This document shows, in pieces, positions 3,001 to 37,269 of a stretch of 64,000 bases of DNA. The stretch is from Thermoanaerobaculia bacterium (GTDB lineage Bacteria > Acidobacteriota > Thermoanaerobaculia > Multivoradales > Multivoraceae). Under the pieces are notes generated by a model that worked only from the letters and a program-made list of their open reading frames with translations, was not told the DNA's origin and ran no database searches. Location of the stretch: positions 3,040,001 to 3,104,000 of the forward strand of contig OY761158.1 in the NCBI GenBank assembly GCA_963664405.1, written 5' to 3'. The position numbers were made by a program, and so were the translations under genes. Within the stretch, counting starts at the first letter, position 1. Each line of letters begins with the position of its first letter.

Positions 3001-3147
3001 CTTCTGGTGGACGCTTTCAACATCACCAACGAAGACAATGTGGCCGGCGTAAACAACGTGTCGGGCCCCGACTTCGGTACCCCCAATAGCTTTCTCCCGG
3101 GCCGCGAGATCCAGGTCGGGGTGCGCTACTTTCTCGGCGGTCGCTAG
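79..3147 (+). CDS. TonB-dependent outer-membrane receptor with N-terminal carboxypeptidase-regulatory-like domain (Oar-like)
   Basis: Signal peptide; 'GSVSGVVKDAEGNALPGVSV' CarboxypepD_reg pattern; plug motif 'DAIQEFEVVTTGYQAEFGRAQAGVINVLTRSGTN'; C-terminal 'GREIQVGVRYF'. ATG at 79 follows GAAGGAG. Confidence 0.92.
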   Translation: MSMSRSFLSVLVLLVSLCLPGLAFGQVAGSVSGVVKDAEGNALPGVSVIVSGAALQRESLRAVTDADGAYRVSPLPPGAYAMRFELDSFAPQGFDEIRVGVNARVTLDWTLLPEAVAETVEVRGALPLMEIQRSELATRIEEESIDNLPLQSRNAEDLVVLVPGVTPRPAEVRDQQFSIFGERPSATSFRYDGADNNDPLDGGSFQRYAQDAIQEFEVVTTGYQAEFGRAQAGVINVLTRSGTNAAQGRAFFFKRNDAWDSSNVEGQEAPELSREQWGLSLGGKLRRDRAFFFVAGELLDEERGRNIDFSTVPQWVQDGISTVGGEENFAAGPKIDGETLLGKIDFLPNDAQRWTLSLNSTVDDADGDIPSGIAGALVLPSAARLQERDSLGWTLNQSTVLSQRGVLDSHVRLLDGETGTNLDKNERAEAILLLFRSGFIQTGAQLPGGRAERNIDRFSVGQSYSRLSGSHELKFGYEYLDTSLDGFEEVSNDVEYSAYFLFPNAIDLNEDLFQRFGFEHAAARFFFLSANPDGSLNLDIDNEDIGLYGQDKLQISDNVIIDIGLRYDQASLFDNDDDNFAPRFGLTWDVGGKHRTVVKASAGLFYDQNALIASTGVPEKGGFFRLNGFDVALPRLGAPYTDSLIDLVITSGFPIGGGARSPAENPLYAQFAADLRANPLHLYNLLGINVADAANPPLVTADNVQGLSGLGPDQVTSLLETTYPGTDWIFFDVPGGSVLGDRVLSFLPRGPLDVTRTLQTYDRDLVPSTEAYTLGVEHQLGSNYRVALNLVKRETRDLLTTRIVNLFDVAPGEPGFGTTTDGGPRISEVGYDGVIDYEGATVSLWRPFRDRWGFMFSYTYSENDDNLLTGNVGSGFSNNNHPEFDYGTSSLSVPNVAVANVSALLPLDFRVSAIAFYRDGPAFSPRGIVDTDGDGLVDQRDLSQPRNAFRVDEILNVDLRVEKPFSLGNGHEISLLVDAFNITNEDNVAGVNNVSGPDFGTPNSFLPGREIQVGVRYFLGGR

Positions 3148-3148
3148 G

Positions 3149-4411
3149 GTGTCCCAGGCCTCTGTCGATGCGGTCCTCGCCGAGGTCGAGGAGGCCGCCG
3201 ACGAGCTCGTCGAGCTCGCTCTCGAGCTGATACGGGTACCGACCGTCAACCCGCCGGGAGAGCACTACCGCGACTGCGCAGAGCTCATAGGTCGCCGGCT
3301 GGAGGACTTCGGATTCGAGGTCGATTACCCGTGCCCCCGCCAGCAGCCCAGCCCCGCTTACCCTCGAGTGAACGTCGTTGGGACTCGCCGGGGTGAGGAG
3401 GCTCACCCGATGGTCCATTTGAATGGCCACTTCGATGTTGTGCCTGTCGGTGACGGCTGGACGGTCGATCCCTTCGCCGGAGTGGTGCGCGACGGTCGCG
3501 TCTATGGTCGGGGCTCCGCCGACATGAAGTGCGGCCTGGCGGCGGCGATGATCGCTGCCGAGGCGCTACGTCGCGCCGGGGTGCCGCTGCGTGGCTCGAT
3601 CGAGATCAGTGGCACCGTCGATGAGGAGAGTGGCGGTTTCGCCGGCATGGCCGAGCTCGCCGAGACCGGGCGAGTCTCGGCGGCTCGTACCGATCACGTG
3701 ATCATTCCGGAGCCTTTGAACGTCGACCGTATCTGCGTAGGTCATCGCGGCGTCTACTGGTTCAAGGTGTCGGCGCGCGGGCGGATCGGCCACGGCAGCA
3801 TGCCCTTCCTCGGCTCGAGCGCGATCGACCCCATCGGTCGGCTGCTCGAGAAGGTGCGCACCGAGCTTCGGCCGGCGATCGCTATGCGGCGAACGGAGAT
3901 GCCGGTAGTCCCGGAAGAGGCGCGACATGGCTCGATCAATGTCAACGCGATAATGGGCGGGCAGGCGGGGCTCGACCCCCAGACACCCTGTGTCGCCCAC
4001 GCCGGCGAAGCGATCTTCGACCGCCGCTACCTCTTGGAAGAGGGCTTCGAGGCGACCCGCCAGGAAGTGCGCGACCTTGTCGAGGCGGTCGCGGCCGAGG
4101 ATTCATCGTGGCGTCTCGAGATCGAGGATCTGCTAACGGTGCGACCGACCCAGACCCCCGACGGCGATCCGCTGGTGCAGTGCCTGGAGAACAGCATCTC
4201 CAAGCTGCTCGGTCGCCCGGCCACCCTGGTGGCGAGCCCCGGTACCTACGACCAAAAGCACGTCACCCAGATCGGGGGTGTCGCAAGCTGCGTGGCCTAT
4301 GGCCCCGGCGTTCTCGAGCAGGCGCACCAGCCCGACGAGTGGTGCGATGTGCGCGACATGGTCGATGCGGCTAGAGTGATGGCGCTAACCCTCCTCGACT
4401 TGGTTGGATGA
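3149..4411 (+). CDS. M20 family metallo-amidohydrolase (ArgE/DapE-like)
   Basis: Motifs 'NGHFDVV', 'GRGSADMK', 'DEESGG', 'AHQPDE'. Confidence 0.92.
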   Translation: MSQASVDAVLAEVEEAADELVELALELIRVPTVNPPGEHYRDCAELIGRRLEDFGFEVDYPCPRQQPSPAYPRVNVVGTRRGEEAHPMVHLNGHFDVVPVGDGWTVDPFAGVVRDGRVYGRGSADMKCGLAAAMIAAEALRRAGVPLRGSIEISGTVDEESGGFAGMAELAETGRVSAARTDHVIIPEPLNVDRICVGHRGVYWFKVSARGRIGHGSMPFLGSSAIDPIGRLLEKVRTELRPAIAMRRTEMPVVPEEARHGSINVNAIMGGQAGLDPQTPCVAHAGEAIFDRRYLLEEGFEATRQEVRDLVEAVAAEDSSWRLEIEDLLTVRPTQTPDGDPLVQCLENSISKLLGRPATLVASPGTYDQKHVTQIGGVASCVAYGPGVLEQAHQPDEWCDVRDMVDAARVMALTLLDLVG

Positions 4412-10253: not shown

Positions 10254-10837
10254 TCGTGATGGGCTTTCAGTACCGGGACGATGCAGAAAGACTGCGGGTG
10301 GCTTTGGAGAAACGCCTTCGGGAGTTTTCCCTGGAGCTCCACTCGGAGAAGACGCGGCTGATCGAATTCGGTCGGCTTCCAGCCCTGCGCCGACAGCGGC
10401 TCGGGCAGCGTCGCCCCTCGACCTTCGCCTTCCTGGGCCTCACGCACTACTGTGGGTGGACTCGGGATGGGCGATTCGTCTGCAAGCAAAGGACGCAGTC
10501 GACGCGATTGTCGCGGAAGCTGCGGGAGGTCAAGGTGGAAGCTCGGCGCCGGATGCATCGGCCGGTGGCGGAACAGCATCGCTGGCTTACCAGTGTGCTG
10601 CGAGGTCACTATCGGTACTACGGTCTGCCTGGCAACTCCAAAGCTCTGGCCTCGTTTCGCAACCAGGTGAGCCAGATCTGGTACCGGTCGCTTCGAAGAC
10701 GAAGCCAACGCGGCCTGCTCTGGCTCGCCTACAACGAGATCCTGCGCCGACTGCCACTCTTGCCAGCTCGTGTTGATGGCTGCGAGAAAGCGCATCCCGT
10801 TGGCTGCGAGCGCAGTTTCCGGGATGGAGTGAGCTGA
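10254..10837 (+). pseudogene. C-terminal half of a group II intron RT (class E-like); no DV/DVI downstream
   Basis: '(F)VMGFQYRDDAER...LHSEKTRLIEFGR...TFAFLGLTHYCG...LRGHYRYYG'. Confidence 0.85.
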
Positions 10838-10939
10838 GGGCTTCGCGACCGCGGGAGAGCTAGCCCTTCTTCAGGAGGGCGGCATCATCCCGCCGGAACG
10901 GCGGTCCGGGTGCGTGGTCCCGGCTCCGGTACCGTTTCC

Positions 10940-17563: not shown

Positions 17564-18598
17564 TAGTACACCGGGACGGAAGTTCTGGAACGTATTATTT
17601 CAAGCTGCATGAGCGAAAGAGGGACACCGTTGGAGGAGGCGTACGAGGTCGTCGCGGGTGAAGCTCCACTGGAAGGGCTGCGCGATCTTCTGGTAGTGGT
17701 CTTGGAAGTCGAGGATGCGCTGGGTGATCTGGTGACAGGAGGCGAAGTCGTCGGGGGTGAGGGCCTTGCGTTGCAGGACGGAGAAGTAGATTTCGATTTG
17801 GTTCAGCCAGCTGGCGTGCACTGGCAGGTGAACCAGGATGAGCCTGGGCCACTGGCGGCGGAGTCTGTCAATGGCGCGCTGGCCTCGGTGGACGGTGCCG
17901 TTGTCGACAACCCAGAAGACCCGCTTCGCCGAGCGGTAGGGCTTGACGCTCATGACCGAGGCGACGAGAGCATCGAAACAGTCGATGGTGGATCGTTCAA
18001 CGACGTGGCCGAAGAGGCGGGCGCGATGGACATCCCAGGCGGCCTGGTACGCGCAGGTGCCGCGTCGACGGTACTCGTGCTCGACGCGGAGGGCACGGCG
18101 AGGGGCGGTCGGGCGAATCGGATGGCGCCGCTGGCGGATCTGAAGTCCCGCCTTCTCATCGGCGGAGAGGACGAAATCCCCTTCCTTGAGGGGCTTGTCT
18201 TCCCAATGACCGTCGTACAGATCCAGGACCCGACCGGCCTTGCGGGCGAAATCGGGATCGCGAGGAAAGATCCAGCTCCGGTAACTCCAGGGTCGAATGG
18301 CGTCTTGCGAGAGCCAGCGCCAGATAGTCGTGCCCGAGATCTCGGCGACGATGCCCTGGTCGAGGACATGGCGACGCAGCTCGCTGCGGCTGAACCGCGA
18401 CAAAGGAAGTCCCTCCGTGGCGGGGAGCTGGCAGGCCAGGGCTTTGACCTCAGCAATGATCGCCGGGGGGGAAATCGGAGGGGCGTCCTCCGCGGGGTCG
18501 ATCCTCTAGCCCCGCGAGTCGCCGATAGAAGAACCGTTTTCGCCACTTCGAGACCTTTGGCCGCGTGAGCTGAAGGGTGGCCGCGATGTCCTTGTTTT
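17564..18598 (-). mobile_element. IS630-family element, 5'-truncated by IS3; two-frame transposase
   Basis: HTH 'KVSKWRKRF...EDRPRGGRP'; slippery TTTCCCCCCC near 18465-18474; DDE part 'SADEK', 'VVDNGTVH', 'HASWLNQIEIYFS'; TA at the end. Confidence 0.88.
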
Positions 18599-19615
18599 TG
18601 GAGCTACCCCGATTTGGTGGACACCGCTGAAAGTCCGAGAATGGACTTGGAGGTGTTCAGGAGATGGGTCAGTCACGGAGAAGATTCAGCGAGGAGTTCA
18701 AGCGCGAGGCGGTCCGCCTGGCTTACGGGACGGGGCGTTCGGTCGTCGAGGTGGCTCGGGAGTTGGATGTGCGTGCGGAGCAGATTCGTCGTTGGCGCAA
18801 GCATTTCGAGCACCGGGAGTCGTTGGGATCGGAGCCCGATCCCGCGGAGGAGGTCAAGCGCCTTCGTCGCGAGCTGGCTCGGGTGAAGCAGGAGCATGCG
18901 ATCCTAAAAAAAGCCTTGGCGATCTTCTCGGAGACGCAGCGATGCGTCTGAGTGTGGCGCAGCGTGTCGCGGTGTCGTTTCCGGTGGCGCAGGTATGTAG
19001 CGTCCTGGGAGTGTCCCGCAGCGGCTACTACGCACGTCTCGGGCGCGGTGAATCGGCCCGTGTGCGAGAAGATCGCCGACTCAAGCAGCAGATTCTGGCG
19101 GTGCATGTGGAGGCACGGCAGCGCTACGGGACGCCTCGTGTCGAGCGCGCGCTGCGCCGGTCGGGGACGCGGACGTCTCGCAAGCGCGTGGCGCGTTTGC
19201 GTCGTGAACTGGGATTGCGCACCCGCGACTCCCGCCGCTTCCGCGTGACGACCGATTCCGACCATCGCAAGCCAATCGCACCGAATCGCTTGCAGCGCAG
19301 CTTCACGTCCCGTGCTCGAGATCGCATCTGGGTCGGCGACATCACCTATCTGCGTGCCGGTGCGAGCTGGCTGTATCTCGCCGTGCTTCTGGACGTCTAT
19401 TCCCGCCGAGTGGTGGGATGGAGCCTCTCGAGCCGCATCGACGAGGGGCTTGTCCGCAAGGCCTTGGATCGAGCCCTAGCCGCTCGTCGGCCGGCCCGAG
19501 GCTGGATCCATCATACCGACCGAGGCGGCCAATACTGCGCGGACGACTACCGCGAGCGGGTCGACAAACTCGGAGGGGTCGCGAGCATGAGTCGCAAAGG
19601 CGATTGCTGGGACAA
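18599..19615 (+). mobile_element. IS3-family element, left part (IRL, orfA, orfB truncated at 'GDCWD')
   Basis: IRL TGGAGCTACCCCGATTTGGTGGACACC; A7G -1 frameshift motif at 18906-18913; orfB 'WVGDITY', 'HHTDRGGQY', 'SMSRKGDCWD'. Confidence 0.92.
18664..18951 (+). CDS. IS3 OrfA (HTH)
   Basis: 'RRRFSEEFKREAVRL...VARELDV...ILKKA'. Confidence 0.9.
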   Translation: MGQSRRRFSEEFKREAVRLAYGTGRSVVEVARELDVRAEQIRRWRKHFEHRESLGSEPDPAEEVKRLRRELARVKQEHAILKKALAIFSETQRCV

Positions 19616-19618
19616 GGG

Positions 19619-21712
19619 CTACGCTTCACACTGCACCTCCTCCGTAGGGTTCGGTTCGACGTCGAGGCGGCGCCGTCGTTGCGAGAGTTTTCGGCCCTGC
19701 ATTTTGACGGGCGGGTCGTCGCCGAGATGCTCGTAGAGGCACTCGTTCTTGTCGTTGTAGGCATGGGCACGCAGCAGGCCGTGGTTGCGCCATGTCTTCA
19801 CCGTGTGGGTCGCGACACCCAGTAGGTCAGCCATCTCTTCGAGGGTAAGCATTCCCCCCTCACGCAGTCGGTCGTACCTCTTCTTGATGTCGTAGTCACG
19901 GCGCAGTCGCCGGACGATGCCGGCGTGAAATCGTTTGCCCTCTCCGGAGAGATGGCCTCTGTCGTTGAGGATGCTCGCAATCTCGGCCTCGGTGTAGTCA
20001 TCAAGCAGGGTATCAATCTCGGCAACGACCTGTTTCGATGTTTGGCGTAACTCCCATGCTGTCGGCGGAATGGGCAGTTTGAGACTTCGTGTCGCGCCAC
20101 CTCGGAAGCGGACACCGACAACGATCTCGTCGCCCTTCGTCAAGGTGACGTCCTCGATGAGCAAGCGCACCATGCGCTTGCGCTCGCGTTGAGGCGTCTT
20201 CGGGTCGTTCCACAACCGCGGGAAGTCGGTGGCGAGGGCGAGGATCTCTTCTCGTTGCTGGTCGCCGAGCTGTTGGTGATCTTGCTGGCGGCGCTGCTCG
20301 AGCTCCTCCTGTGCGTCGTGCAGCCCGCGCAGCCTCTCGTTCCACTCGGCCTCGAGGACATCCACCACGAGGCGGTTCCCCGGATCGACCTCCATGAAGC
20401 GACGCCGAGCCAAGTCAGCCTCCTGTCGAGCTCGCTGTACGTGCTGGCGCCGCAGGGAATCGGCCTCGTGGATCCGTGCATCGAGCTCGACCTGGACTTT
20501 CAGTGCAACCTCCAGAGTCACAGGCGTAACCGTCTCCACAAGCAGCTCTCCGATGGCCCGATCGATGCCCTTGCCCGGGATCGACTGACACTTGGGTGTC
20601 GCGGTGTCGATGCCCTCGCGCTGGCAGACGTACTCGGGCCACTGAGTGCCCCTGCGCGTGTGATAGCGGACCGTCATCCGATGGCCACAAACGCCGCAGA
20701 GGACCAAGCCCTGCACCAGCGCTGGCCCCTCGCGCGGTGGGCTCTTGCGCCGGTCTCGGCCGTGGGCCTGGGCGTTGTCTCGTAGTCGTCTCAGGTTTTC
20801 TTCGAATTGTTCCCAGGGAATGTAACCGGGGTGCGCGTCGAGCAACAGCGCGGTCCACTCCTCACGCGGAAGCGACTTGACCTCGATGGTGCCGTTGACG
20901 CGCTTTTGCGTGTGAGTGCGACCGAAACAGAAAGCGCCAGCGTAGCGGGGATTGTGCAGCACCCTCAGGACGCGCCAGTGGCGCAACGACTCCCACAACA
21001 GCTCTCCCTTGTGGGGGCCGAAGCGCGGCCGGCGCGGAAACCGCAAGCCTTGCTCGCGGAAGTGTTTGACCGTCGCCGAGGCCGAGCCCATACGCTCGAA
21101 GGTCTCGAACAGGTGCTCGAAGCTCCGTTGGACCTGGCCGTCGGGATCTAACACCACGTTGCCGGTCGGGTCGTAGAGTAGGCCGACGGGTAACGGGGTT
21201 TGCAGCGCACCTCGGCGCGCCTGATTCAGAATGCCTCCGCGCAGCCGAGCCCGCATCACGTGAAGCTCCGCCTCGCTCATCGTGCCCTTGAGCCCGAGCA
21301 GAAGGCGATCGTTGAAATCACTCGGGCTGTAGACCCCGTCCTCGTCAAGGATCAGCGTGTCGGTCAGCGCGCAGATCTCCAGCAGTCGATGCCAGTCCGT
21401 GCTATTGCGTGCCAGGCGCGAAACCTCCAGCCCGAGAACGATCCCGGCTCGGCCCATACCGACCTCGCCGACGAGCTTCTGAAAGCCCTCGCGGTCGACG
21501 CTGGAAGCTGCGGACTTACCCAGGTCGGAGTCGATCACGATGACTCGCTCGATGGGCCATCCCATCGCCACCGCGCGCTCTCGCAACGCGTACTGGCGTC
21601 TCGTGCTCTCCGTATTCTCGAACACCTGGCGCACGGTCGACTGGCGAACATACAGGTACGCATCGCGTCGCAGGTGGCTTGGGGTCACTTTCTGGTGGGC
21701 GCTTGCGCTCAT
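19619..21712 (-). CDS. Large serine recombinase (resolvase, recombinase, Zn-ribbon, coiled coil, C-terminal HTH)
   Basis: 'YLYVRQST' catalytic Ser, 'EVSRLARN', 'LHNPRYAG', 'GLVLCGVCG...YVC...C'. Confidence 0.93.
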   Translation of the reverse strand: MSASAHQKVTPSHLRRDAYLYVRQSTVRQVFENTESTRRQYALRERAVAMGWPIERVIVIDSDLGKSAASSVDREGFQKLVGEVGMGRAGIVLGLEVSRLARNSTDWHRLLEICALTDTLILDEDGVYSPSDFNDRLLLGLKGTMSEAELHVMRARLRGGILNQARRGALQTPLPVGLLYDPTGNVVLDPDGQVQRSFEHLFETFERMGSASATVKHFREQGLRFPRRPRFGPHKGELLWESLRHWRVLRVLHNPRYAGAFCFGRTHTQKRVNGTIEVKSLPREEWTALLLDAHPGYIPWEQFEENLRRLRDNAQAHGRDRRKSPPREGPALVQGLVLCGVCGHRMTVRYHTRRGTQWPEYVCQREGIDTATPKCQSIPGKGIDRAIGELLVETVTPVTLEVALKVQVELDARIHEADSLRRQHVQRARQEADLARRRFMEVDPGNRLVVDVLEAEWNERLRGLHDAQEELEQRRQQDHQQLGDQQREEILALATDFPRLWNDPKTPQRERKRMVRLLIEDVTLTKGDEIVVGVRFRGGATRSLKLPIPPTAWELRQTSKQVVAEIDTLLDDYTEAEIASILNDRGHLSGEGKRFHAGIVRRLRRDYDIKKRYDRLREGGMLTLEEMADLLGVATHTVKTWRNHGLLRAHAYNDKNECLYEHLGDDPPVKMQGRKLSQRRRRLDVEPNPTEEVQCEA

Positions 21713-21996
21713 GCGTGGTTCTCCTGTAGATGGCTGAGAGCCATGGCGGCCAGCACGTTGATCAGATCCGCGCTCGTATCGTGAGGCAGTGCGGACGGCC
21801 TGGCTATCTCGGCGGACGGTGCCGGGGTCGGCGCGGGCATCTTGGACCCCTGTTCAACCCAAGCGGCCAGCCCTTGTCGCAGGAGAACGGCCAAGCCGAA
21901 CCGAACCGATAGGAGCTGCCGCTTCGCCGCATGTCCTCGGAGCTCCTCGTAGCGAGCGACATGGGCCGGAGCGTTCTGCTGGCGTGTCGCGCTCAT
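21709..21996 (-). CDS. Small accessory protein of the recombinase element
   Basis: ATGA overlaps with both neighbours; 'YEELR...GLAVLLRQGLAAW'. Confidence 0.7.
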   Translation of the reverse strand: MSATRQQNAPAHVARYEELRGHAAKRQLLSVRFGLAVLLRQGLAAWVEQGSKMPAPTPAPSAEIARPSALPHDTSADLINVLAAMALSHLQENHA

Positions 21997-22460
21997 GGCC
22001 GGCGTTTTTTTTCCTGGCGAGCCAGGGCTCGCTCAATGCTGCGCGGATGGATCGAGATGCCAAAGCGCTTCTGCACCCACTCGGCCAGGGCGGTTGCATC
22101 TGCGTCCGGCTCCCCCTCCAGCCTGTCGTGCAGGGCCTCGACGACCTCCTCGGATAGCTTGTGGGCGCGGCGCGGCCCCGGCTTTCTTGGCAGCAACGCG
22201 GGTAGGCCGCCTTCTTCGTAAACCACCTGGGCGTGGTAGAAGGATGGGCGCGACAACCCGAAGCTTGCCGCGCTCCGGCTCACCGTGTGTCTGTCCACCC
22301 GGACACGGCGCAGCATCTCGTACTTGACCTGCACGAGGTCTCGAGGGTCGAAGAACTCGCTCGAGGTGAACAAATCGTCCGAGACCTTCTCCGGCTGGGG
22401 ATGAAGGCACCCTCGTTGACGGAGGGCCTCGGCTTTCGGGTCGGGTCTGCGTCGCGGCAT
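21993..22460 (-). CDS. Helix-turn-helix protein of the recombinase element
   Basis: GAGGAG RBS; 'FFDPRDLVQVKYEMLRRV...SAASFGLSRPSFY...GLPALLPRKPGPRRAHKL'. Confidence 0.85.
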   Translation of the reverse strand: MPRRRPDPKAEALRQRGCLHPQPEKVSDDLFTSSEFFDPRDLVQVKYEMLRRVRVDRHTVSRSAASFGLSRPSFYHAQVVYEEGGLPALLPRKPGPRRAHKLSEEVVEALHDRLEGEPDADATALAEWVQKRFGISIHPRSIERALARQEKKRRP

Positions 22461-22488
22461 GATCGTCTCCTCATGGAATGTAATTCTA

Positions 22489-22516
22489 ATTATGCCTCTC
22501 ATGGATCCTCTGTCAA
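22489..22516 (-). promoter_or_regulatory. Sigma70-like promoter for the HTH-orf-recombinase operon
   Basis: TTGACA-N16-CATAAT on the minus strand, overlapped by one arm of a 21-bp imperfect inverted repeat. Confidence 0.6.
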
Positions 22517-22675
22517 GGGGTGTCCACCAAGAGAGTACCGATAGATCGTGCATTAAATTGGCCTATCTCTACACTCCTGGTCACACTCCGGCACTCTTCC
22601 CGACATAATTGTGATTACATTCACGGCATAATCTCCTTTACGCACGGTGCCCCTCAACCGTCCTCACGCAGGTCT

Positions 22676-22968
22676 TCATCGCTCGCTCTCCCGGGTCAGC
22701 TTGGCGAGCTCGAGCAGGTCGGCCACGCGGTACATCGATCTGCCTGCGGAGATGACAACCACGGGGTCCTCGGCCACCGCACTCGTCCAACGCGCTGGAA
22801 GGGAGCGTAGCTCCTCGCATTCATCCAGGTAGAAGACCCGGTCCTCGCCCCAGCACTGGCGATAGTGAGCCAGCTCGTACTCACGCCCCAACAGCGGGTG
22901 GAACGGATGGGTTACCCGAAAACGTCGTTGCTCACAATCTGTATCGGGTGCATTCGACCATTGAGCCC
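22676..22968 (-). CDS. DUF5372 / Y4bD-like small protein with no start codon upstream of its conserved core inside the element
   Basis: 'FRVTHPFHPLLGREY...WGEDRVFY...SLPARWT'; the frame is open to the element end with no ATG/GTG/TTG before the conserved core. Confidence 0.75.
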
Positions 22969-23731
22969 AAAGGCCGCGTCGAGCGCGCAATCCGCTTCCT
23001 GCGAAGCTCGTTCTTCGGCGCCCGAACGGTGAGCGATTTGGATCGTCTGAATCGGCAGGTCCTGGAATGGTGCCAGAGGTCGCAGCGCAGACCCTGGCCG
23101 CAGGACCGACAGCGAACCGTGAAAAGCGCCCTGGCCCAGGAACGGCCTCGACTGCTTGAGCTTCCCGGAGACGACGTCGAAACCGATCTGCGAGTGGAGA
23201 TCAAGGTCAGAAAGACGCCGATCGTGCGTTTCGACCTCAACGACTACTCGGTGCCGCACAGTCATGTGCAGAGGACCGTCACGCTCCTCGCCAGCGAGCA
23301 TCGGGTGCGGATCCTCGATGGCCAGGAGCTCCTCGCCGAGCACCCTCGCTCGTACTCCCGGGGCGAGCAGATCCTCGATCCTCAACATCTCGAGGAGCTC
23401 CTCGCTCACAAACGCAGGGCCCGACGACACCGGGGCTTCCATCGGCTGTTTTCCGCTGTGCCTCGATGCGAAGAGCTGATGCAGCAGCTCGCCGAGCGAG
23501 GCGAGAACCTCGGAACGCAGAATCCTCGAGGTTGTGCGGTCTCACGGAGAGATCTCGCTGTTGGAGCTCCTGGCTGAGCGGCACCGGTAAAGCCGGAGGC
23601 TGACCGAGGCCGCGCGGGTGCCGTTCGAGTAGGAGCCGGCGGACTGGAATCGCGGTGCGTGGTTCAGGAGCGCTTCGCGCACGGCTTTGTCGAGTCGCTG
23701 GGGGCCGTACTGGCGCAGGAGTCGGACTAGT
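22969..23731 (+). pseudogene. istA: IS21 IstA C-terminal half; the last ~210 bp are inverted
   Basis: 'KGRVERAIRFLRSSFF...VRFDLNDYSVP...AEHPRSY...GENLG' on plus; continuation 'LVRLLRQYG...EALLNHAP...VRPHNLED' on minus at 23731-23522. Confidence 0.85.
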
Positions 23732-24318
23732 ACTGGGCGTCGTGACCATACGCTGCTTCTTACCCTGTTCAACACCGGCGCTCGCGTGCAGGAGCTCCTC
23801 GACCTACGGCCCGTCGATCTACAGCTGGATCGTCCCTTCCAGGTCCGGCTGCGCGGCAAGGGGCGCAAGGAGCGTCTTTGACTAGTGCTTGAGTCGATCG
23901 CATCGAACAGGGCGCGAAGCTCGCTGGCATCGAGATACTCGACGACCGGGATCGGGGCGCGCTTGAAAGGTACAGCGAGCAGGAGCTGGCAGGTTTCGAG
24001 ATGTTCGGGATGCCTGCCGGCAACAAAACGCGCGAAGGCATGAAGTGCAGCCAAGCGGGCGTTGCGCGTGGCGACACCGTTTGCTCGCTCCTGCTCCAGG
24101 TGATCGAGGAAAGCAATCACGGCGTCGGGCTCGAAGTCCGACAGATCGAGATCGATAACGGATCGGCCCCGGTCTGCTGCGAGGAAGCGAAGGAAGAGCG
24201 CCAAGGCGTCTCGGTAGCTCCTGACTGTGTGCGGACTTGCACCTTGTACTTGCGGAAGGTGCTCGCTGAAGAAACTACGAAGGGCTCGTGCGAGATCGTT
24301 CGGTGGGGCGGCTCTCAT
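23732..24318 (-). pseudogene. RIT recombinase C, truncated, with an internal inversion
   Basis: 'SPHTVRSYRDAL...TRNARLAALHAF...DSSTS' on minus; next residues 'TGRRDHTLLLTLFNTGARVQE...GKGRKER' lie on plus at 23732-23880. Confidence 0.85.
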
Positions 24319-25304
24319 CGTGCACATTCCTCAGGAGCGTCGATGACGATCGACTGAGCGTGGCGAGCGAAGAGCTCGTCGGCTTTTTGAGCGAATGGCT
24401 CGAAGAGGGCAAGGTAGTGCTGTGTGGAGACGATAGAGACGTGGCCCATGTAGATCGCGAGGGCGGGCAGTTTGGCCTGCACGTCGACGCCCTCTCGGTA
24501 CCAGCGAAGGAGCGCTTGGTGGGCGAAACTGTGGCGCAGGTCGTGCACACGAGGGAGATCGCCTGTGGAGGTCTTGATCCTTGCGCTACGGAAAAGCTCC
24601 CGGAGTCCCTGGGCAAGACCGGCACCGGTATACGGACGCAGTCCCCGGCTGCAGTTACACAAAAGAGGCTGGTCGCCAGAAGATAGCAGCCTCCGGCGCA
24701 CCTGGAGGTAGTCTTCGATCTCGCGTGCGGCGTCACCCGACAGCGGCACGAGTCGCGACTTATGAAACTTGGTGGCGTCGATTCGAAGCGTGCGCTCAGC
24801 TGCGTCGTAGTCGGCGATAGTGAGCCGGGTGAGCTCGCCACGGCGTAGGCCGGTCGTGTAGAGCAGAACGACCGCTAGGCGAAAGACCTCACGATGTAAC
24901 GGCGAATGAGCGTGTGGCAGCAGGGCGTCGGTCACTCGTAAAAGGCGGGCGATTTCCTCCTGAGTGAAGAGATGAGGGCGTCTAGGCTGATGAGGATCTG
25001 GAAAGCCGCTGCGATCCGGCACAAAGCAGACGGGCTCATTGCGCTGCCGATAGAGGCAGAGATTGCGAACGATTCGCATCCGGTTGCGCCGCACGCCTGG
25101 CGAGAGGTGGGCCATCGTCGTGCACCACTGGGCGAACGTGTCGGCGCTGAGCTCCACTCCGTGACCCAGCGAAACGAGAAAATGGTCGAGATGCAGAAGC
25201 ACGTCGCGCTCCACTGCGTACTGCCGTCCGAGGCTCTGTTTCACGCGGACATAGCGGGCCATCGTGGGACCGAGGAGCGAGCAAAAGGAGGTGTGCCCCC
25301 TCAT
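24315..25304 (-). CDS. RIT recombinase B (tyrosine recombinase)
   Basis: 'LYTTGLRRGE', 'TKFHKSRLVP', 'HDLRHSFA', 'YMGHVSIVSTQHYL'. Confidence 0.92.
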   Translation of the reverse strand: MRGHTSFCSLLGPTMARYVRVKQSLGRQYAVERDVLLHLDHFLVSLGHGVELSADTFAQWCTTMAHLSPGVRRNRMRIVRNLCLYRQRNEPVCFVPDRSGFPDPHQPRRPHLFTQEEIARLLRVTDALLPHAHSPLHREVFRLAVVLLYTTGLRRGELTRLTIADYDAAERTLRIDATKFHKSRLVPLSGDAAREIEDYLQVRRRLLSSGDQPLLCNCSRGLRPYTGAGLAQGLRELFRSARIKTSTGDLPRVHDLRHSFAHQALLRWYREGVDVQAKLPALAIYMGHVSIVSTQHYLALFEPFAQKADELFARHAQSIVIDAPEECAR

Positions 25305-26545
25305 CGCCGGGCCTCTTCGTGTGCAATCCCAGGCAAGTCGAGGGGACATCCCTCAGGTCCTCGACGTGGAGCCGGAGATAGACCGCTGGTACTTTCAACG
25401 CTCCGATGGCCGAGAAGGCCACCGATACTCTTGAGTGCCGCACCTTTCCGGAGCAGATGAATGGCCAGAGAGTGGCGCAGGCAATGAGGGCCTTGGAACG
25501 GAATCGGGAGGCCAGCACGGCGGACCCACCCCTGGAAGGCCTCTGTGACAGCCGTCGGTTTGAGCGTCCCCGCGGGAGCCCGGACGCGGAGGAAGACCTC
25601 TCGCAGCGGCAGAGCTGGACGACCGCCTCGAAGGTAAGAGAGGATCGCGGCGCCCACCTCCGGGGTCAATGGCACCTCCAGGGGGGAACGCACCTTGGGC
25701 CGCGGCACCCGCACCCTACCGTCGCGCCACGCGATGTCGTCGAGGGTGACCGAGACGACTTCGCAGGTGCGCAGGCCGTAGGTGACAATGAGCAGGAACA
25801 TGGCGTAGTCGCGCCGTCCCATCGCCGTCGAGCGATCGATGGCCCGGACGAAGGTGCGAACGGTCTCCCAGGACAGCGCGCGAGGGAGTCGCTCGCCACG
25901 ATAAACGCGAGGTGTATCGATGGCCGAATCGAGACCGGCCGCAGCGAGGCCACGCGCAGCTAGAAAGCGGAGGAACGAGCGCACGTGGGAGACGGTGTGC
26001 TGGAGACTCTCGCGGCTGAGCCGCTGCGCCTTGAGCTCAAGGAAGCCCTCAATCACTCCTCCGTCCAGAGATCGCAGGCAGTCATCGAGCTGCTCGTCTC
26101 CGCTGTCTCGTAGGTAGGCGAGCAACTCGCGCACGGTCGCGGCGTAGTGATTCAGCGTGCTGCGCGATAGCCCTCGCACTTTCTCGAGGTGAGAGCGGTA
26201 CGAGGCGCTTAATTCGAGAGCCGGGGTCGGACGCTGAGGTGCCAGCGCTCCTTGCGCCCCGAAATAGCGCACCAGCGAAAGGACAAGAGCGGAGCGGTAG
26301 ATGTCGTCCTGTGAAGACGCCGGAGCGTACACCAGGAGCTCTTGCGCCGAAAGCTCTTCGATCTTGCTGACTCCATCGCGCCGAAACTGAGCGTCAAGTC
26401 CCTTGGCGGCACGGACGCGCAGGCGAATGGGAAGGCGAGGATAGCCCTGAGACCTGAGCCAAACAATCAACCCCTCGAGATACGGTCCCAACACGGGCAG
26501 GCACCGGTAGCGAGCATGGGCTCGCGGAAACATCTCGGCAAGCAT
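25301..26545 (-). pseudogene. RIT recombinase A, probably frameshifted just before the catalytic Tyr
   Basis: 'TYGLRTCEV', 'HCLRHSLA', 'LGHRSVEST'; the expected 'VYLRLHVEDLRDV' is in another frame. Confidence 0.75.
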
Positions 26546-26690
26546 CGCAACCTCCTTGCAGATAGCAGCGCCGCTATTGGCGCAGCCGCGATGCTATGGA
26601 GACCGTTTATGTGGAGTCGGGAGGACGAAAAAAGCAGCAACTACGCGAGATCCTCATGCAAACTCTACATAACGAAGTACTTCACATGAG

Positions 26691-26720
26691 TCGACTTATG
26701 TGGTGCACCACATAAGTCGA
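26691..26720. repeat. 30-bp perfect palindrome at the RIT end
   Basis: TCGACTTATGTGGTG|CACCACATAAGTCGA. Confidence 0.95.
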
Positions 26721-27013
26721 TGAGCTGGGCTATCTCTCCTACGACCACCGCCACGCGGATCTCCTCTTCGAGGTCGTCTCCAGACGATACGGCAACAAGC
26801 CCCCTTCTCACCACCAACAAGCCCTTCGCCGAATGGGCCGAAGTCTTTCCCAACGCCTCCTGCGTCGTCACTCTCGTCGATCGACTCACCCACCACGCCG
26901 AGATCGTCAAGATCGAGGCTAACTCCTATCGCCGCAAGGAGGCCAAGGAGGCTGCTGAAAAAAGGGCCAAGGCCCGCGCCAAAAGGCGGAGCGCAGCACG
27001 ACGACGCTCATGA
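26716..27013 (+). pseudogene. istB: IS21 IstB ATPase, C-terminal part from Walker B onward, frameshifted
   Basis: '[26 protein letters not shown]', then '[41 protein letters not shown]'. Confidence 0.88.
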
Positions 27014-27340
27014 CCCGAAGCCACTATCGGCGCCAGCTCCTCCGCCTCTATCGACTCCTTCCCGACACCCCTCACCGCTTCCACCACGGCGACCGCGTCA
27101 TCGTCGACCAGCTCTTCGACCAAGACCTGCCTCTCACCGTCCTCCAGGCCGCCCTCCTCCTCGGCTCCGCCCGACGCGCATGCCGAGATCCGCGCCTACC
27201 AAAGCTCCAGCCCATCCGATCCCTCGCCTACTTTCTCCCCATCCTCCGAGAACTCCCCACGACGCCACCCCCCGATGGGTACCTCGACTATCTACGCCAC
27301 ACCCTGAGTCGCGCCTCGCGGGCACAAAAAACCGACACTC
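27010..27340 (+). CDS. Hypothetical protein coupled to istB; 3' end uncertain
   Basis: ATGA overlap with the istB stop; 'LYRLLPDTP...AALLLGSARR...LQPIRSLAYFLP'. Confidence 0.55.
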
Positions 27341-27411
27341 GCAGCCAACTATGTGCGTTATGTCGAGCTCTACATAGCCCGCGTTTCCTAAGCGCCGTTG
27401 ACAGACGAGCA

Positions 27412-33975: not shown

Positions 33976-34284
33976 CCTTGTGCCTGTATCGGAGTCGTAC
34001 TCGCCCTCTGCCACTGGCAAAACACAGGCCACCGTGGATGCCCGGTTCAGGGGGCTCCTGAGACCTTGACAATCAGCTGCTAATACAAGCACTGCGCAGC
34101 CTACTGCGCAGCTACTGCGCAGGGATGTTTGGTATAGAAATAGTTACTATTGGTAATATTCTTGCCATGCATGCCGACGGGCGGCAGCTGAGGGAGGAGA
34201 GATCTCTCTACCCCCGAGATCGACGGAATGCTAGTCTCCCGCGCGCGGGTTTCGAGTTGAGCGAGGAAATCCAGAGAGGAACCA

Positions 34285-34686
34285 ATGACGTCGAAGAGAT
34301 CTTCCATGATCATCGTCGCGATCGTCGGTCTCGGATCCATGCAGCTGGTTTCTGCGGTCGCAGAGGAGGCGGTCGATTTCGAGGGCGATGTTTGGCCGAT
34401 CCTCGAAAAGCACTGTGTTTCGTGCCACGGCCCCGAGGACGAGTTCAATGATCTCCGCTTCGACTCCAAGGAGGCGATTCTCAAAGGCGGCAAGAGCGGC
34501 GAGGTGCTGGTACCGGGAGAGCCGGAAAAGAGCTCGATGTATGTGCGTCCGAGTCTCCCCGCCGACGACTTCGACATCATGCCCGCAGAGGGAGATCCCC
34601 TGACCAAGGAACAGGTCGAGATCCTACGGCGGTGGATCGCGGCAGGCGCAGATTTCGGGTCCTGGACGGGCTCGAGCGCCGGCTAG
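34285..34686 (+). CDS. Planctomycete-type cytochrome c domain protein
   Basis: Signal peptide; 'VDFEGDVWPILEKHCVSCHG', 'IMPAEG', 'ILRRWIAAGA'. Confidence 0.88.
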   Translation: MTSKRSSMIIVAIVGLGSMQLVSAVAEEAVDFEGDVWPILEKHCVSCHGPEDEFNDLRFDSKEAILKGGKSGEVLVPGEPEKSSMYVRPSLPADDFDIMPAEGDPLTKEQVEILRRWIAAGADFGSWTGSSAG

Positions 34687-34734
34687 AGACGGGCGCTGGG
34701 TGTAGGGTCGACCGACAGACACGGAGGTAGGGAC

Positions 34735-35931
34735 ATGAGTGGATCCGCAGGCTCTCATGGTGTCGGTATTCTGAGCGACGAGCGAAGGATGCTACAAGAG
34801 ATGGCTCGGGAGTTCACCCTGAAAGAAGTGCTTCCGGTGGCCAACGAGCTCGACCCGGTCAAGGGTGATATTCCGCAGTCTCTGATCGAGAAGCTCGGAG
34901 ACATGGGTTACTTCGGAATCGTCATCCCGGAGGAGTATGGCGGGGCCGGACTCGGCGTCTTCGAGTACTGCCTGATCACCGAGCAATTGGCGCAGGGCTG
35001 GATGAGTGTGGCAAGTCTCATTGCCCGCGGCAATGGCTTCTACCGCTCCATCCCTGGCAGCGGAGAAGAGCGCACCAAGAAGATCGAGGCGATGGCTCGG
35101 GGCGAGTATCTCGGCGCGTTGGCCATGTCCGAGCCCGAGGTCGGATCGGATATCGCTTCGATCAAGACTCGGGCTCGTCGCGAGGGAGACGAGTGGGTGA
35201 TCAACGGCTCCAAGTATTGGTGCACCTTTGCCGACGGCGCTGATTTCATCCAGGTGATGGCGCGCAGCGAGGATCCTACGGACGACAAGCGCCGGCACGT
35301 AGGGCTGACGTCGATCGCGGTGGAGAAGCCCAAAGGGGAGCTACCCAAGGGTGTCACCGGTAGCCCGATCCCCAAGATCGGTTACTTCGGCTGGAAGACA
35401 TGGGAGCTGCACTTCGACAATGTGCGTGCGCCGGTGCAGGAGAGGCGGAGCGAGAACGAGGGCCGTGCCTTCTACGGTATGGCGCGAGGGCTCGAGTCGG
35501 CCCGAGCCCACACCGCCGCCCGATCGATCGGCCTGGCGCAGGGCGCGCTGGAGACGGCGATTGACTACTCTCTGGAGCGCATCCAGTTCCAGCGACCGAT
35601 CGCCGACTTCCAAGCCATCCGCTTCAAGATCGCAACGATGGCGACCGAGGTAGAGGCGGCGCGCCAGCTCCTCTATTCGGTCTGCGCCGGCATCGACTCC
35701 GGCGAGAGCCGAGCCAAGGAGGCGGCGATGGTCAAGTACTTCGCCGCCGAGATGTCCGAGCGAGTCACCAGCGAGGCGCTGCAGGTACTCGGCGGCGCCG
35801 GCTACACGACCCTCTACCCGGTGGAGCGCTTCTGGCGCGATGCCCGGCTCACCAAGGTCTTCGAGGGCACGTCAGAGATCATGCAGCGAATCATCTCCGA
35901 CGCCATCCTCGGCAAACCTTCGCGGCGCTGA
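34735..35931 (+). CDS. Acyl-CoA dehydrogenase
   Basis: 'AMSEPEVGSD', 'INGSKYW', 'RIQFQRPIADFQ', 'RDARLTKVFEGTSEI'. Confidence 0.95.
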   Translation: MSGSAGSHGVGILSDERRMLQEMAREFTLKEVLPVANELDPVKGDIPQSLIEKLGDMGYFGIVIPEEYGGAGLGVFEYCLITEQLAQGWMSVASLIARGNGFYRSIPGSGEERTKKIEAMARGEYLGALAMSEPEVGSDIASIKTRARREGDEWVINGSKYWCTFADGADFIQVMARSEDPTDDKRRHVGLTSIAVEKPKGELPKGVTGSPIPKIGYFGWKTWELHFDNVRAPVQERRSENEGRAFYGMARGLESARAHTAARSIGLAQGALETAIDYSLERIQFQRPIADFQAIRFKIATMATEVEAARQLLYSVCAGIDSGESRAKEAAMVKYFAAEMSERVTSEALQVLGGAGYTTLYPVERFWRDARLTKVFEGTSEIMQRIISDAILGKPSRR

Positions 35932-36029
35932 ACGTTGTCGCGCGCGCCGTGAGCTTGTGTCGTCGCTGGGGCGTCTCGAGCGGGTGCCGGGTCGCCGCTG
36001 GGGCCTCTCAGGGTGAGGCGTCGGCGCGA

Positions 36030-36212
36030 GGCGGGCCGGAGGCGAGCGGAGTGTCCCTCCGCGGGAACGGCGGCCGCTCCTGAGAGTGCGCTGGTCGATC
36101 ATGCGGCCGCCTCGGCTTCCGCTCGCTTCGATCGTTCCCCCTTCGCCAACGTTGGTGCGGCGCTCGCTCCAGACGCCCCGCCAAGGGGCACTCCGCCCGC
36201 CTCCTCTCCGTC
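36030..36212. repeat. MITE/REPIN-like element, copy 1 (degenerate)
   Basis: Shares 'CGGGAACGGCGGCCGCTCCTGAGAGTGCG', 'TTCCGCTCGCTTCGATCG' and 'CGCTCGCTCCAGACGCCCCGCC' with 38728-38931 in the opposite orientation. Confidence 0.85.
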
Positions 36213-36224
36213 GCTGCCTCAACC

Positions 36225-36441
36225 TCACCTGAGCTGATGAAGCGCATGGAAAAGCGTTGTGCCTCTGTCTTCAAAGTACGCAGGCTCATAGCCTGCGTAC
36301 TTTGTGAGGCTTGCCTGGGGATCCGTAATCCACCATGAGAACACGCTTGCCTTGTTGGGCAAGGGCGTGGGCAAGATTAATCGTCGTCGTTGTCTTACCG
36401 GCCCCTCCTTTCTGGTTGACGATGGCGATGGTGGTGGTCAT
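36225..36441 (-). pseudogene. ParA/Soj ATPase N-terminal fragment
   Basis: '[38 protein letters not shown]', frameshift, 'DPQASLT'. Confidence 0.85.
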
Positions 36442-36474
36442 ACGGGTTCAGTATGGGGAAGTCCCCGACGAGTA

Positions 36475-36654
36475 CTACTCGTCGGCCTTATTAACCTCCC
36501 AACCCTCTTTGAGCATGCGCGCCTCCTGTCTAGTAGGCTCGACCACGACTCTTGGCAGCGGATGCAACCGGTCGAATATTTCATCGGCGAGCTCAAGGCG
36601 CTCCGCTAGTGGGAGCTCGAGGAGGGCCTTCCGAACGTCTTCCTTGTCTGTCAT
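36475..36654 (-). CDS. Orphan addiction-module antitoxin-like protein (59 aa)
   Basis: 'MTDKEDVRKALLELPLAERLELADEIFDRL'; preceded by TTGACA-N16-TAGGCT. Confidence 0.6.
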   Translation of the reverse strand: MTDKEDVRKALLELPLAERLELADEIFDRLHPLPRVVVEPTRQEARMLKEGWEVNKADE

Positions 36655-36723
36655 AACTTCAGCCTAGGCGCGGTGGGTCATGTGTCAAGGACGCGTGCAA
36701 CCGCGTTGTCGAGCCGAGCAGTG

Positions 36724-37014
36724 TTAGACGCTCTTGCGCCAATGGTCAGGGTCGCGGTGGCCATGTAGGAAGGCAACGACGAGGAGCTCGTCGTCTTTGA
36801 TTCTGTAGACGACGTTGTAGGGGAAATCTCGAAGCACGGCCAGACGCGCCGTGCCTTCTCGTATCTGCACGCTCTCCGGAAAGAGCTCGATGTTTGCCAG
36901 CGTTTGCTCAAGGGACCGACGGAGGCGATCGCCATATCCGTGGCGTTGCGCCTCGACGTACTCGATAGCTACGGCCACCTCTTCGAGGACGCCGGGACTC
37001 CAGACCGTTTTCAT
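36724..37014 (-). CDS. RelE/ParE-family toxin
   Basis: 96 aa; 'RLAVLRDFPYNVVYRI...VVAFLHGHRDPDHW'; ATGA overlap with the antitoxin. Confidence 0.9.
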   Translation of the reverse strand: MKTVWSPGVLEEVAVAIEYVEAQRHGYGDRLRRSLEQTLANIELFPESVQIREGTARLAVLRDFPYNVVYRIKDDELLVVAFLHGHRDPDHWRKSV

Positions 37015-37232
37015 GCACCGCGAGACAAGCGCTCGTCAAGGCCCGCGTCGAACTCTTCCTGTGAGAGAGACGACGAGTGGTCTCTATCGTGCTGTTGGAT
37101 TCGCGTATGGATAAGCTCTTGCTGTGCCTGGGTCAGGTTCGGTAGCGTGCTTTCGATAAGCCGAACGCCGAGCTCACGACGCTCCGGCTCGGGGAGCTTG
37201 AAGGCTTGCTTCTCGATCTCTGTCTTGGTCAT
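37011..37232 (-). CDS. Addiction-module antitoxin
   Basis: 73 aa; 'AFKLPEPERRELGVRLIESTL'; directly upstream of the toxin. Confidence 0.82.
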   Translation of the reverse strand: MTKTEIEKQAFKLPEPERRELGVRLIESTLPNLTQAQQELIHTRIQQHDRDHSSSLSQEEFDAGLDERLSRGA

Positions 37233-37241
37233 ACGTTCTTC

Positions 37242-37269
37242 AGAATAGACCCTCTGGGGAGGGTGTCAA
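37242..37269 (-). promoter_or_regulatory. TA operon promoter with palindromic operator
   Basis: TTGACA-N16-TATTCT, 9 nt before the ATG; ACCCTC-N4-GAGGGT palindrome spanning the spacer. Confidence 0.6.

Follow-up and report, generated by a model that had tools for sequence, protein, structure and literature searches.

The window analyzed here is a 64,000 nt stretch of contig OY761158.1 (positions 3,040,001–3,104,000, forward strand) from a Thermoanaerobaculia bacterium. Window positions 19614–22970 hold an element of 3355 bp (one AA copy counted) that displays the dinucleotide AA at both borders and lies within transposase genes of other insertion sequences (ISs). It has four genes, all on the minus strand, which encode a DUF5372 protein, a helix-turn-helix (HTH) protein, a 95 amino acid open reading frame (ORF) and a 697 amino acid large serine recombinase (LSR). 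In all probability it is a compact (3.3–3.5 kb), cargo-free mobile element that is moved by the LSR. The ends and flanks of the element are:

18792–19613, plus strand: left flank, N-terminal part of an IS3-family OrfB, from the ORF list (Pfam rve, 2.9e-24, and HTH_21; NCBIfam transpos_IS3, 1.3e-57)
19614–19615: left copy of the AA crossover, the sole sequence common to both junctions in five copies, single in empty sites
19616–19643, minus strand: recombinase-side terminal arm, GGTGCA-N16 to the crossover on the minus strand; end motif kept in 72 of 92 loci
22947–22968, plus strand: DUF5372-side terminal arm, GGTGCA-N16 to the crossover; inverted partner of the 19616–19637 arm
22969–22970: right copy of the AA crossover, from shared copy ends and the comparison with empty sites
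22971–23521, plus strand: right flank, 3′ part of IS21 istA (Mu-transpos_C_2, 1.5e-23); K-G-R-V-E-R when AA is included

The left junction reads ...TGC TGG GAC AA/GGGCTACG (AA at 19614–19615; a slash marks the crossover) and the right junction ...GAGCCC/AA/A GGC CGC GTC GAG CGC (AA at 22969–22970). All five copies of the element in the genome have the left end AA-GGGCTACGC... and the right end ...GAGCCC-AA, and divergence begins exactly outside of AA. The ends placed by the initial annotation, which was made from the window sequence, therefore agree to the base with those of the five genomic copies.

The IS3 OrfB flank terminates with ...S-M-S-R-K-G-D-C-W-D, short of the N codon ahead of the catalytic Glu, and is unique in the genome. 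This junction is 31 residues past the second catalytic Asp, the position expected for a DD(35)E enzyme, and the Pfam rve model stops two residues short of it. The IS21 flank shares 98.3% identity with 22 further IS21 copies in the genome and aligns to positions 2867–3419 of an extract that holds an intact 3390 bp IS21 copy. The assignment of the flanks to an IS3 orfB cut at TGG GAC AA/ and to an IS21 istA with K-G-R-V-E, made at the outset, is upheld by the sequence, by the Pfam and NCBIfam matches on the left and by Mu-transpos_C_2 and the 22 IS21 copies on the right. It had also been proposed that excision would give an in-frame W-D-K-G-R-V-E-R. The arithmetic is correct, but the product would be an IS3::IS21 hybrid and not a restored gene, because the window copy is chimeric (see below).

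Target codon

Homologous elements were collected by tblastn with the recombinase. At least 530 plasmid records match, at least 394 of which cover at least 80% of the recombinase, and seven were examined (pNGR234a, Sinorhizobium meliloti pSymA, and plasmids of Burkholderia, Rhodococcus, Aromatoleum, Streptomyces and Bradyrhizobium). A scan with one genome per species gave at least 600 stretches, at least 588 of them confirmed by tblastn, of which the best 80 were kept, and a metagenome scan gave at least 596, from which 80 loci were used. The flank test set thus has 92 loci (5 from this genome, 7 from plasmids, 80 from genomes); with the 80 metagenome loci kept for replication the total is 172. 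Ends were located with rules that use element-internal sequence only, i.e. GGTGCAGT(A/G)TGA-N10-TT at the recombinase end and TT-N16-TGC(A/G)CC at the other end.

In 67 loci the DUF5372-side end is placed with confidence and the flank is 60 nt or longer; these loci give 65 unique right flanks. When these are translated from AA, the first codon is N in 27 and K in 38, as is forced by the AA start. The fifth codon, four after the N/K codon, is Glu in 58 of 65, and the other 11 offsets show Glu in 0–9 of 65. With the end rules frozen beforehand, the metagenome set provides 48 unique usable right flanks; Glu is at the same position in 46 of them and at the other 8 offsets in 0–7. On the left side 40 of the 62 usable flanks match Pfam rve (E ≤ 0.001) and one is a citrate synthase. 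NCBIfam tallies of the flanks, which overlap, are IS481 36, IS21 25, IS3 21 and ISNCY_2 8.

The identity of the catalytic Glu in these DDE transposase families is well established. The AA crossover thus very probably forms the first two bases of the Asn or Lys codon that precedes the catalytic Glu by four residues in rve-type DDE transposases, and we are similarly confident that the targeted families are IS3, IS21, IS481, ISNCY and related ones. This position, first proposed from the two flanks of the window copy, recurs across the five genomic copies and the homologues; aligned for N/K-x3-E enrichment, the flanks are not random.

The citrate synthase flank is found on a contig of a Desulfopila metagenome-assembled genome (L048, positions 3648–4157, Pfam 3.8e-30), where the right end is not confidently placed. 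The element appears to have inserted off target here, in a housekeeping gene.

Copies and empty sites in the genome

The host genome is a single contig of 6.78 Mb. The five copies of the element that it contains are 99%–100% identical, which supports a multi-copy, recently mobile element. Three of the five are clean insertions. Copy c2 is in an IS21 istA gene and its flanks are 100% identical to intact IS21 copies. Copy c4 is in an IS481-like gene at R-T-/N-G-K-A-E-R, and copy c5 is in another rve-type gene at W-Q-/N-P-Y-A-E-R, for which one empty paralogue reads ...GGCAG-AA-TCCC. There are 22 empty IS21 sites; 21 read ...AATGAG-AA-AGGCC and one has an extra A beside the site. AA is single in empty sites and present on both sides of occupied ones with no further duplication, as would be left by a 2 bp serine-recombinase crossover. 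Integration is thus most likely conservative at AA, without target duplication. In every case the element is antisense to its target gene. The occupied IS21 copies number only 1–2 of 24, and none of the 14 copies of the IS3 that scores highest as a target (see below) is occupied.

In the empty IS21 with an extra A (genome positions C1:2648203–2648208), the added base is 3–4 bases left of the crossover AA (...AATGA-A-GAAAGG) and puts istA out of frame precisely at the attachment site. This may be chance or a trace of past occupancy.

The other two copies are chimeric. The window copy (c1) has an IS3 left flank and an IS21 right flank and is not a simple insertion. Copy c3 has an IS1182-like left flank (Pfam DUF772) and an IS481-like right flank, and the last 13 bases of its left flank differ from the IS481-like site at one position. 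Neither a matching IS3 right part nor an extra IS21 left part was found anywhere in the genome, and a genome search for reciprocal partners of both chimeric copies found none. Inversion between two copies was considered as the origin and rejected because the reciprocal products are absent. The chimeras possibly represent deletions between copies, the reading we favor, or sequence absent from the assembly.

The region around the window copy is, from its sequence, a nest of rearranged mobile DNA. A 155 nt piece of an IS21 left end (98% identical) is at window positions 10771–10924, 8.7 kb upstream of the element; the IS21 section between this piece and the right flank of the element is missing and other IS fragments fill the region. 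A putative IS630-like ORF (17600–18403; the family is named from sequence) lies between the IS21 piece and the element. On the other side, three tandem tyrosine-recombinase ORFs are found on the minus strand inside the same IS21 copy (window 23523–26717), with lengths of 414 aa (25301–26545), 344 aa (24315–25349) and 261 aa (23542–24327). Beside them a 205 nt IS21 segment is inverted (window 23726–23523), and the IS21 right end resumes at 26717–27365. We take the trio to resemble a recombinase-in-trio element.

Distribution of homologous elements

The homologous elements are 3273–3513 bp in size. In pNGR234a the element is at 33989–37258 and displays the DUF5372 gene, the HTH gene, the small ORF and the recombinase gene in the same order; its recombinase is 52.6% identical to that of the window copy, and it is inserted at TPQA/KGRVER of an ISNCY-type transposase gene. 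The initial annotation had proposed a likeness to a quartet y4bA-D of strain NGR234. The gene layout and the kind of target agree; the names y4bA-D are not given in the record.

The pNGR234a-type module, i.e. these four genes on one strand within about 3.3–3.5 kb, is found for the window element, and the same module is annotated under the match in five of the plasmids (pNGR234a, Burkholderia, Rhodococcus, Aromatoleum and Bradyrhizobium, the last with the small ORF merged into the recombinase coding sequence). The Streptomyces and pSymA stretches are without annotation, and tblastn places DUF5372 upstream of the recombinase in both. All seven plasmid homologues are located in IS3, IS21 or ISNCY transposase genes at the N/K codon. 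Homologues with recombinases of 52%–81% identity use the same target codon in IS3, IS21, IS481 and ISNCY-type genes. DUF5372 is upstream of the recombinase in 76 of the 80 genome loci (L018–L097), the HTH gene is present in 78, and a relative of the 95 aa ORF is at the same place in 41 (tblastn).

Alpha-, Beta-, Gamma- and Deltaproteobacteria, Actinomycetota, Acidobacteriota, Planctomycetota, Chloroflexota, Verrucomicrobiota and others are among the matches listed, and the record titles of the genome scan cover more than a dozen phyla, two archaeal bins included.

Several loci (L019, L026, L047, L059, L074, L084, L091, L095 and many of L098–L177) are metagenome or metagenome-assembled-genome contigs of 3.3–3.5 kb that consist of the element alone. 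This is expected where a multi-copy repeat breaks short-read assemblies, and it leaves the element under-connected in public assemblies.

Genes and control region

The internal features of the element are:

19619–21712, minus strand: large serine recombinase, 697 aa (Pfam Resolvase, Recombinase, Zn_ribbon_recom and a C-terminal HTH_17/MerR-like domain at residues 621–660)
21709–21996, minus strand: small ORF, 95 aa, no Pfam or NCBIfam match; its stop codon overlaps the recombinase start (ATGA)
21993–22460, minus strand: HTH protein (Pfam HTH_32/29/28), homeodomain-like and winged-helix domains
22476–22622: putative control region, from consensus matches only
22676–22968, minus strand: DUF5372 gene body (Pfam PF17342, 2.3e-20, 72.8 bits against a gathering cutoff of 25)

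By every feature testable in its sequence the enzyme is a large serine recombinase. The catalytic domain (PF00239, 2.5e-17, residues 18–169) has the Y-x-R-x-S25 motif, and Y21, R23, S25 and the S98-R99-L-A-R102 motif are invariant in alignments of 5 and 25 relatives. It is followed by the recombinase domain (PF07508, 4e-11) and then a zinc ribbon (PF13408, 2.2e-07) in which C339, C342, C363 and C375 are invariant. The long helical insert of the zinc ribbon, the presumed coiled coil, is assumed to be at about residues 395–500, from its position and from the contact pattern of the model described below. DUF4368 is not among the five Pfam families of the recombinase (E ≤ 0.01). The sequence matches in the PDB are two resolvase catalytic domains only.

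The HTH protein resembles the N-terminal DNA-binding part of IS630/IS481 transposases (partial NCBIfam matches). Its likely start is the ATG at 22460, after GAGGAG, and the listed ORF extends to 22553. Upstream of this gene is a candidate sigma-70-like promoter on the minus strand (-35 TTGACA from 22516, -10 CATAAT to 22489) with 11 of 12 consensus matches. One arm of a 19 nt inverted repeat (22476–22494 and 22604–22622) covers its -10 hexamer. A weaker promoter-like site with 9 of 12 matches is at 22580–22609 on the plus strand, where its -10 hexamer is within the second arm of the inverted repeat. It points outward to the DUF5372 end and the downstream target gene and could drive the 3′ part of the interrupted IS, e.g. 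istB. The DUF5372 annotation is also present on four plasmid records.

The probable splitting of the DUF5372 gene and the proposed excised circle

Between the end of the window element and the conserved T-H-P-F-H-P motif of DUF5372 there is no in-frame ATG, GTG or TTG, and the listed DUF5372 ORF has its start in the IS21 flank. Among 63 distinct elements only one has an in-frame ATG at its DUF5372 end. A GGAGG ribosome-binding site (19638–19643) and a GTG start (19629–19627) are located on the minus strand at the opposite end of the element, in the recombinase-side arm. This DUF5372 start, which is ATG in most relatives, is 14 nt from the crossover and overlaps the recombinase stop (19621–19619).

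When the two ends are joined in silico, an open frame of 101–138 codons runs into the DUF5372 domain in 64 of 64 elements, with an ATG or GTG start in 59 and a ribosome-binding site in 56. The metagenome set displays the junction ORF in 47 of 47 elements, ATG or GTG in 44 and the ribosome-binding site in 45. The other two frames across the joined ends are mostly closed within 0–2 codons, and the DUF5372 junction stretch varies in length by whole codons.

Integration thus appears to split the DUF5372 gene, and a full-length protein would be made only from the excised circle. The excised form would be a circle with the symmetric joint GGTGCA-N16-TT-N16-TGCACC and the operon order HTH, small ORF, recombinase, DUF5372 last. 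On the circle only, the DUF5372 frame would gain a ribosome-binding site and a start and be coupled to the recombinase gene. Since the frame is complete only on the circle, DUF5372 is a candidate circle-specific partner of the recombinase.

DUF5372 and the recombinase

The AlphaFold2 model of DUF5372 (predicted local distance difference test, pLDDT, 88) has three strands and two helices. When the PDB was searched with this model by Foldseek, nothing matched at E ≤ 0.001; the top hits are partial likenesses to ribosomal protein eS4 (E 0.2–1), and the fold therefore provides no functional lead.

Modelled three times, the recombinase–DUF5372 complex has an ipSAE of 0.72, whereas none of the three controls exceeds 0.00. 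The ipSAE mark applied is reached by 58 of 80 solved complexes and by 2 of 110 mismatched pairs, counts that are only approximate here because the alignments were made for this analysis. At least 72% of contacts are common to the runs, with a partner pLDDT of at least 69. The modelled contacts are at recombinase residues 338–343 (zinc ribbon), 394–413 and 482–543, and at the H-P-F-H-P motif and C-terminal helices of DUF5372. The model thus supports binding of DUF5372 to the recombinase at the junction of the zinc ribbon and the coiled coil. Directionality factors of phage integrases bind at the junction of the zinc ribbon (DBD2) and the coiled coil, according to the part of the report consulted (PMC12286644).

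An integrated copy would make the recombinase without full-length DUF5372 and the circle would make both. The simplest logic is then that DUF5372 favors integration or prevents re-excision. That DUF5372 would bias the enzyme in this way after excision, to integration or against renewed excision, is the least secure part of the scheme.

Recognition of the target site

The 58 unique virtual empty sites give a weak logo. AA, GG at +2/+3 and GTCGAG at +8 to +13 stand out, with traces at -8, -5, -3 and -2, and the conserved bases are largely those forced by the peptide motif. One locus, L018, has flanks with no recognizable transposase and yet keeps AA-GG-n5-GTCGAG, which points to recognition of DNA rather than of protein.

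A weight matrix trained only on sites from other genomes was applied to this genome (13.6 Mb scanned). The top ranks comprise 21 IS21 copies, 14 copies of one IS3 and 8 copies of a second IS21, and the five used sites score 14.0–23.2. The matrix enriches IS sites without explaining the choice among them; something beyond the matrix therefore guides this choice. A motif in the target attachment site (attB) that mirrors the arms of the element attachment site (attP), i.e. GGTGCA with a 5 bp shift as in phage systems, was looked for by comparing the logos by eye and none was found, so that likeness to attP provides no account of how the outer half-sites are recognized.

The recombinase may read a degenerate DNA image of the N/K-G-x-V-E-R peptide, roughly GA-n-AA-nGG-n4-GTCGAG. 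Reading of this kind would give the element many safe, multi-copy and horizontally travelling landing sites.

Effect on the target and alternative explanations

As judged from the junctions, the interrupted transposase frame loses its catalytic Glu on integration, and precise excision would restore the gene. The element was initially described as a hyperparasite with a relaxed, position-specific attB. The position and the range of targets have stood up. That the element is a parasite of other mobile DNA follows from where it is located and is put forward as probable on that ground.

Several observations weigh against the scheme as a whole. Glu is absent from 7 of the 65 right flanks (L023, L050, L061, L079, L081, L089 and L092) and from 2 of the 48 metagenome right flanks, and some flanks are not transposase sequences (the citrate synthase of L048, and L018, L079, L081 and L092). 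The site of copy c5 scores only 14.0 on the matrix, a level that 296 positions in the genome reach; the top 60 hits include about 15 non-IS sequences, several non-IS sites score about 19–22, and none of the 14 high-scoring IS3 copies is occupied. Of the five copies in the genome, c1 and c3 are chimeric. The conserved start codon is inside the recombinase-binding arm, and part of its conservation may serve DNA binding. The circle junction is a prediction from ends joined in silico, the mobility of the element is deduced from assembled sequence, and the recombinase–DUF5372 complex is a prediction from alignments made for this analysis. A classical directionality factor made on the circle would hinder integration, so that the effect of DUF5372 may run in either direction.

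The element could instead be a switch that the host has fully or partly domesticated: it would interrupt transposases reversibly and silence them until it is excised, as do the recombinase-excised elements of heterocyst or spore development, and would not be a selfish parasite. The precise insertion and the restoration of the gene that excision would bring agree with this, and among NCBIfam models the recombinase is matched best by XisF, the excisase of the fdxN element (2.2e-21, 76 bits, far below the cutoff of 375). Occupancy is low for a switch, however, at 1–2 of 24 IS21 copies and none of the 14 copies of the top-scoring IS3. Moreover the element is multi-copy, is spread across phyla and plasmids with no fixed host locus, and also hits non-transposase genes. 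We consider domestication improbable. Still less probable is near-random integration at AA sites followed by selection that leaves the insertions in dispensable IS genes. IS genes are indeed dispensable and multi-copy, and a few insertions are found outside of transposases, but selection could not account for one codon and one strand being used throughout at least four transposase families, other positions within the same dispensable genes are never used, and the off-target site retains the DNA motif.

An artefact of assembly or rearrangement, in which a repeat is joined to nearby IS fragments or ISs have inserted beside the element, would account for the two chimeric copies in this genome and for the many metagenome loci that pair left and right flanks of different IS families (e.g. 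L100, L102, L108 and L117). Repeat-collapsed assembly can produce such pairs and nothing is drawn from them. Every single junction is nevertheless at an N/K codon, clean insertions with 100% identical intact references are present in a one-contig genome and in finished plasmids, and insertion of an adjacent IS would leave IS ends at the junctions and not the middle of a transposase gene. There is very little probability that the pattern arose in this way. The reading retained is that of a mobile element with its own recombinase that selects a defined codon of transposase genes.

An extension of this reading, which is possible but distinctly tentative, is a pan-bacterial "transposase-killer" family in which one LSR reads a degenerate DNA image of the catalytic N/K-x3-E motif and so can land in most rve-type ISs, a circle-only gene sets the direction, and the element, by knocking out transposases reversibly, naturally modulates how active ISs are in genomes and plasmids. 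In this extension the recombinase alone would excise and together with DUF5372 would integrate, the reverse of phage integrase logic.

Significance and comparison with known systems

The element would show clearly how one class of mobile DNA can specialize on the catalytic core of another, with a target set by a protein motif common to several IS families and not by one attachment site. This would account for thousands of recombinase/DUF5372 gene quartets and for many broken transposase genes in plasmids and genomes. The enzyme would be a natural LSR that pairs relaxed sequence choice with exact positioning, of interest for how LSRs read DNA, and a coding sequence completed only by circularization would be a new way to sense the integration state.

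A literature search, with subscription-only papers and ISfinder outside its scope, found no description of the element, nor of the pNGR234a quartet as one element. The enriched LSR targets named in the part consulted of Durrant et al. 2022 (PMC10083194) are magnesium chelatase, prolyl isomerase and competence genes; transposases are not mentioned there, and the supplementary table could bear on novelty. The pNGR234a quartet and its many relatives in rhizobia and Burkholderia are elements of this kind, with the same genes, gene order, end motifs and kind of target and a recombinase 52%–62% identical. The pNGR234a quartet differs in that its target is an ISNCY-type gene, and the records annotate only a recombinase, an HTH protein, DUF5372 and a hypothetical protein or transposase.

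IS607 is likewise a short element moved by a serine recombinase; its insertion shows low sequence specificity and leaves no target duplication, according to the part of the report consulted (PMC4058570). IS607 has a small recombinase with an N-terminal DNA-binding domain and no position-specific target, whereas here a 697 aa LSR is found with three accessory genes.

The phage LSRs (phiC31, Bxb1, SPbeta SprA/SprB, LI) have the same order of catalytic domain, recombinase domain and zinc ribbon with helical insert, and the small partner modelled at the junction of the zinc ribbon and the coiled coil resembles the pairing of a phage LSR with its directionality factor. Unlike phage LSRs, one enzyme here uses many dissimilar attB sites and has an extra C-terminal HTH domain. 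The candidate partner gene is intact only on the circle, which suggests a logic opposite to or different from that of a classical excision factor.

Tn4451/Tn4453 and Tn5397 of clostridia (TnpX/TndX) share with the element as proposed here a large serine recombinase, an excised circle, a 2 bp crossover without target duplication, several target sites and a circle joint that alters gene expression. The crossover of Tn4451 is GA and that of the present element is AA. The differences are the lack of a DUF4368 Pfam match, of cargo and of a mobilization gene, and a target that is a defined codon of a protein motif common to several IS families. DUF4368 is present in 63% of the TndX-like multi-targeting clade, as given in the part of the report consulted (Durrant et al., PMC10083194). 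The Tn4451 joint promoter is the nearest known precedent for a gene completed by the circle. According to the title of Lyras & Rood 2000 (in the reference list of PMC13023037), the Tn4451 circle forms a promoter for TnpX; in the element described here it is the coding sequence and start codon, and not a promoter, that would be restored at the joint.

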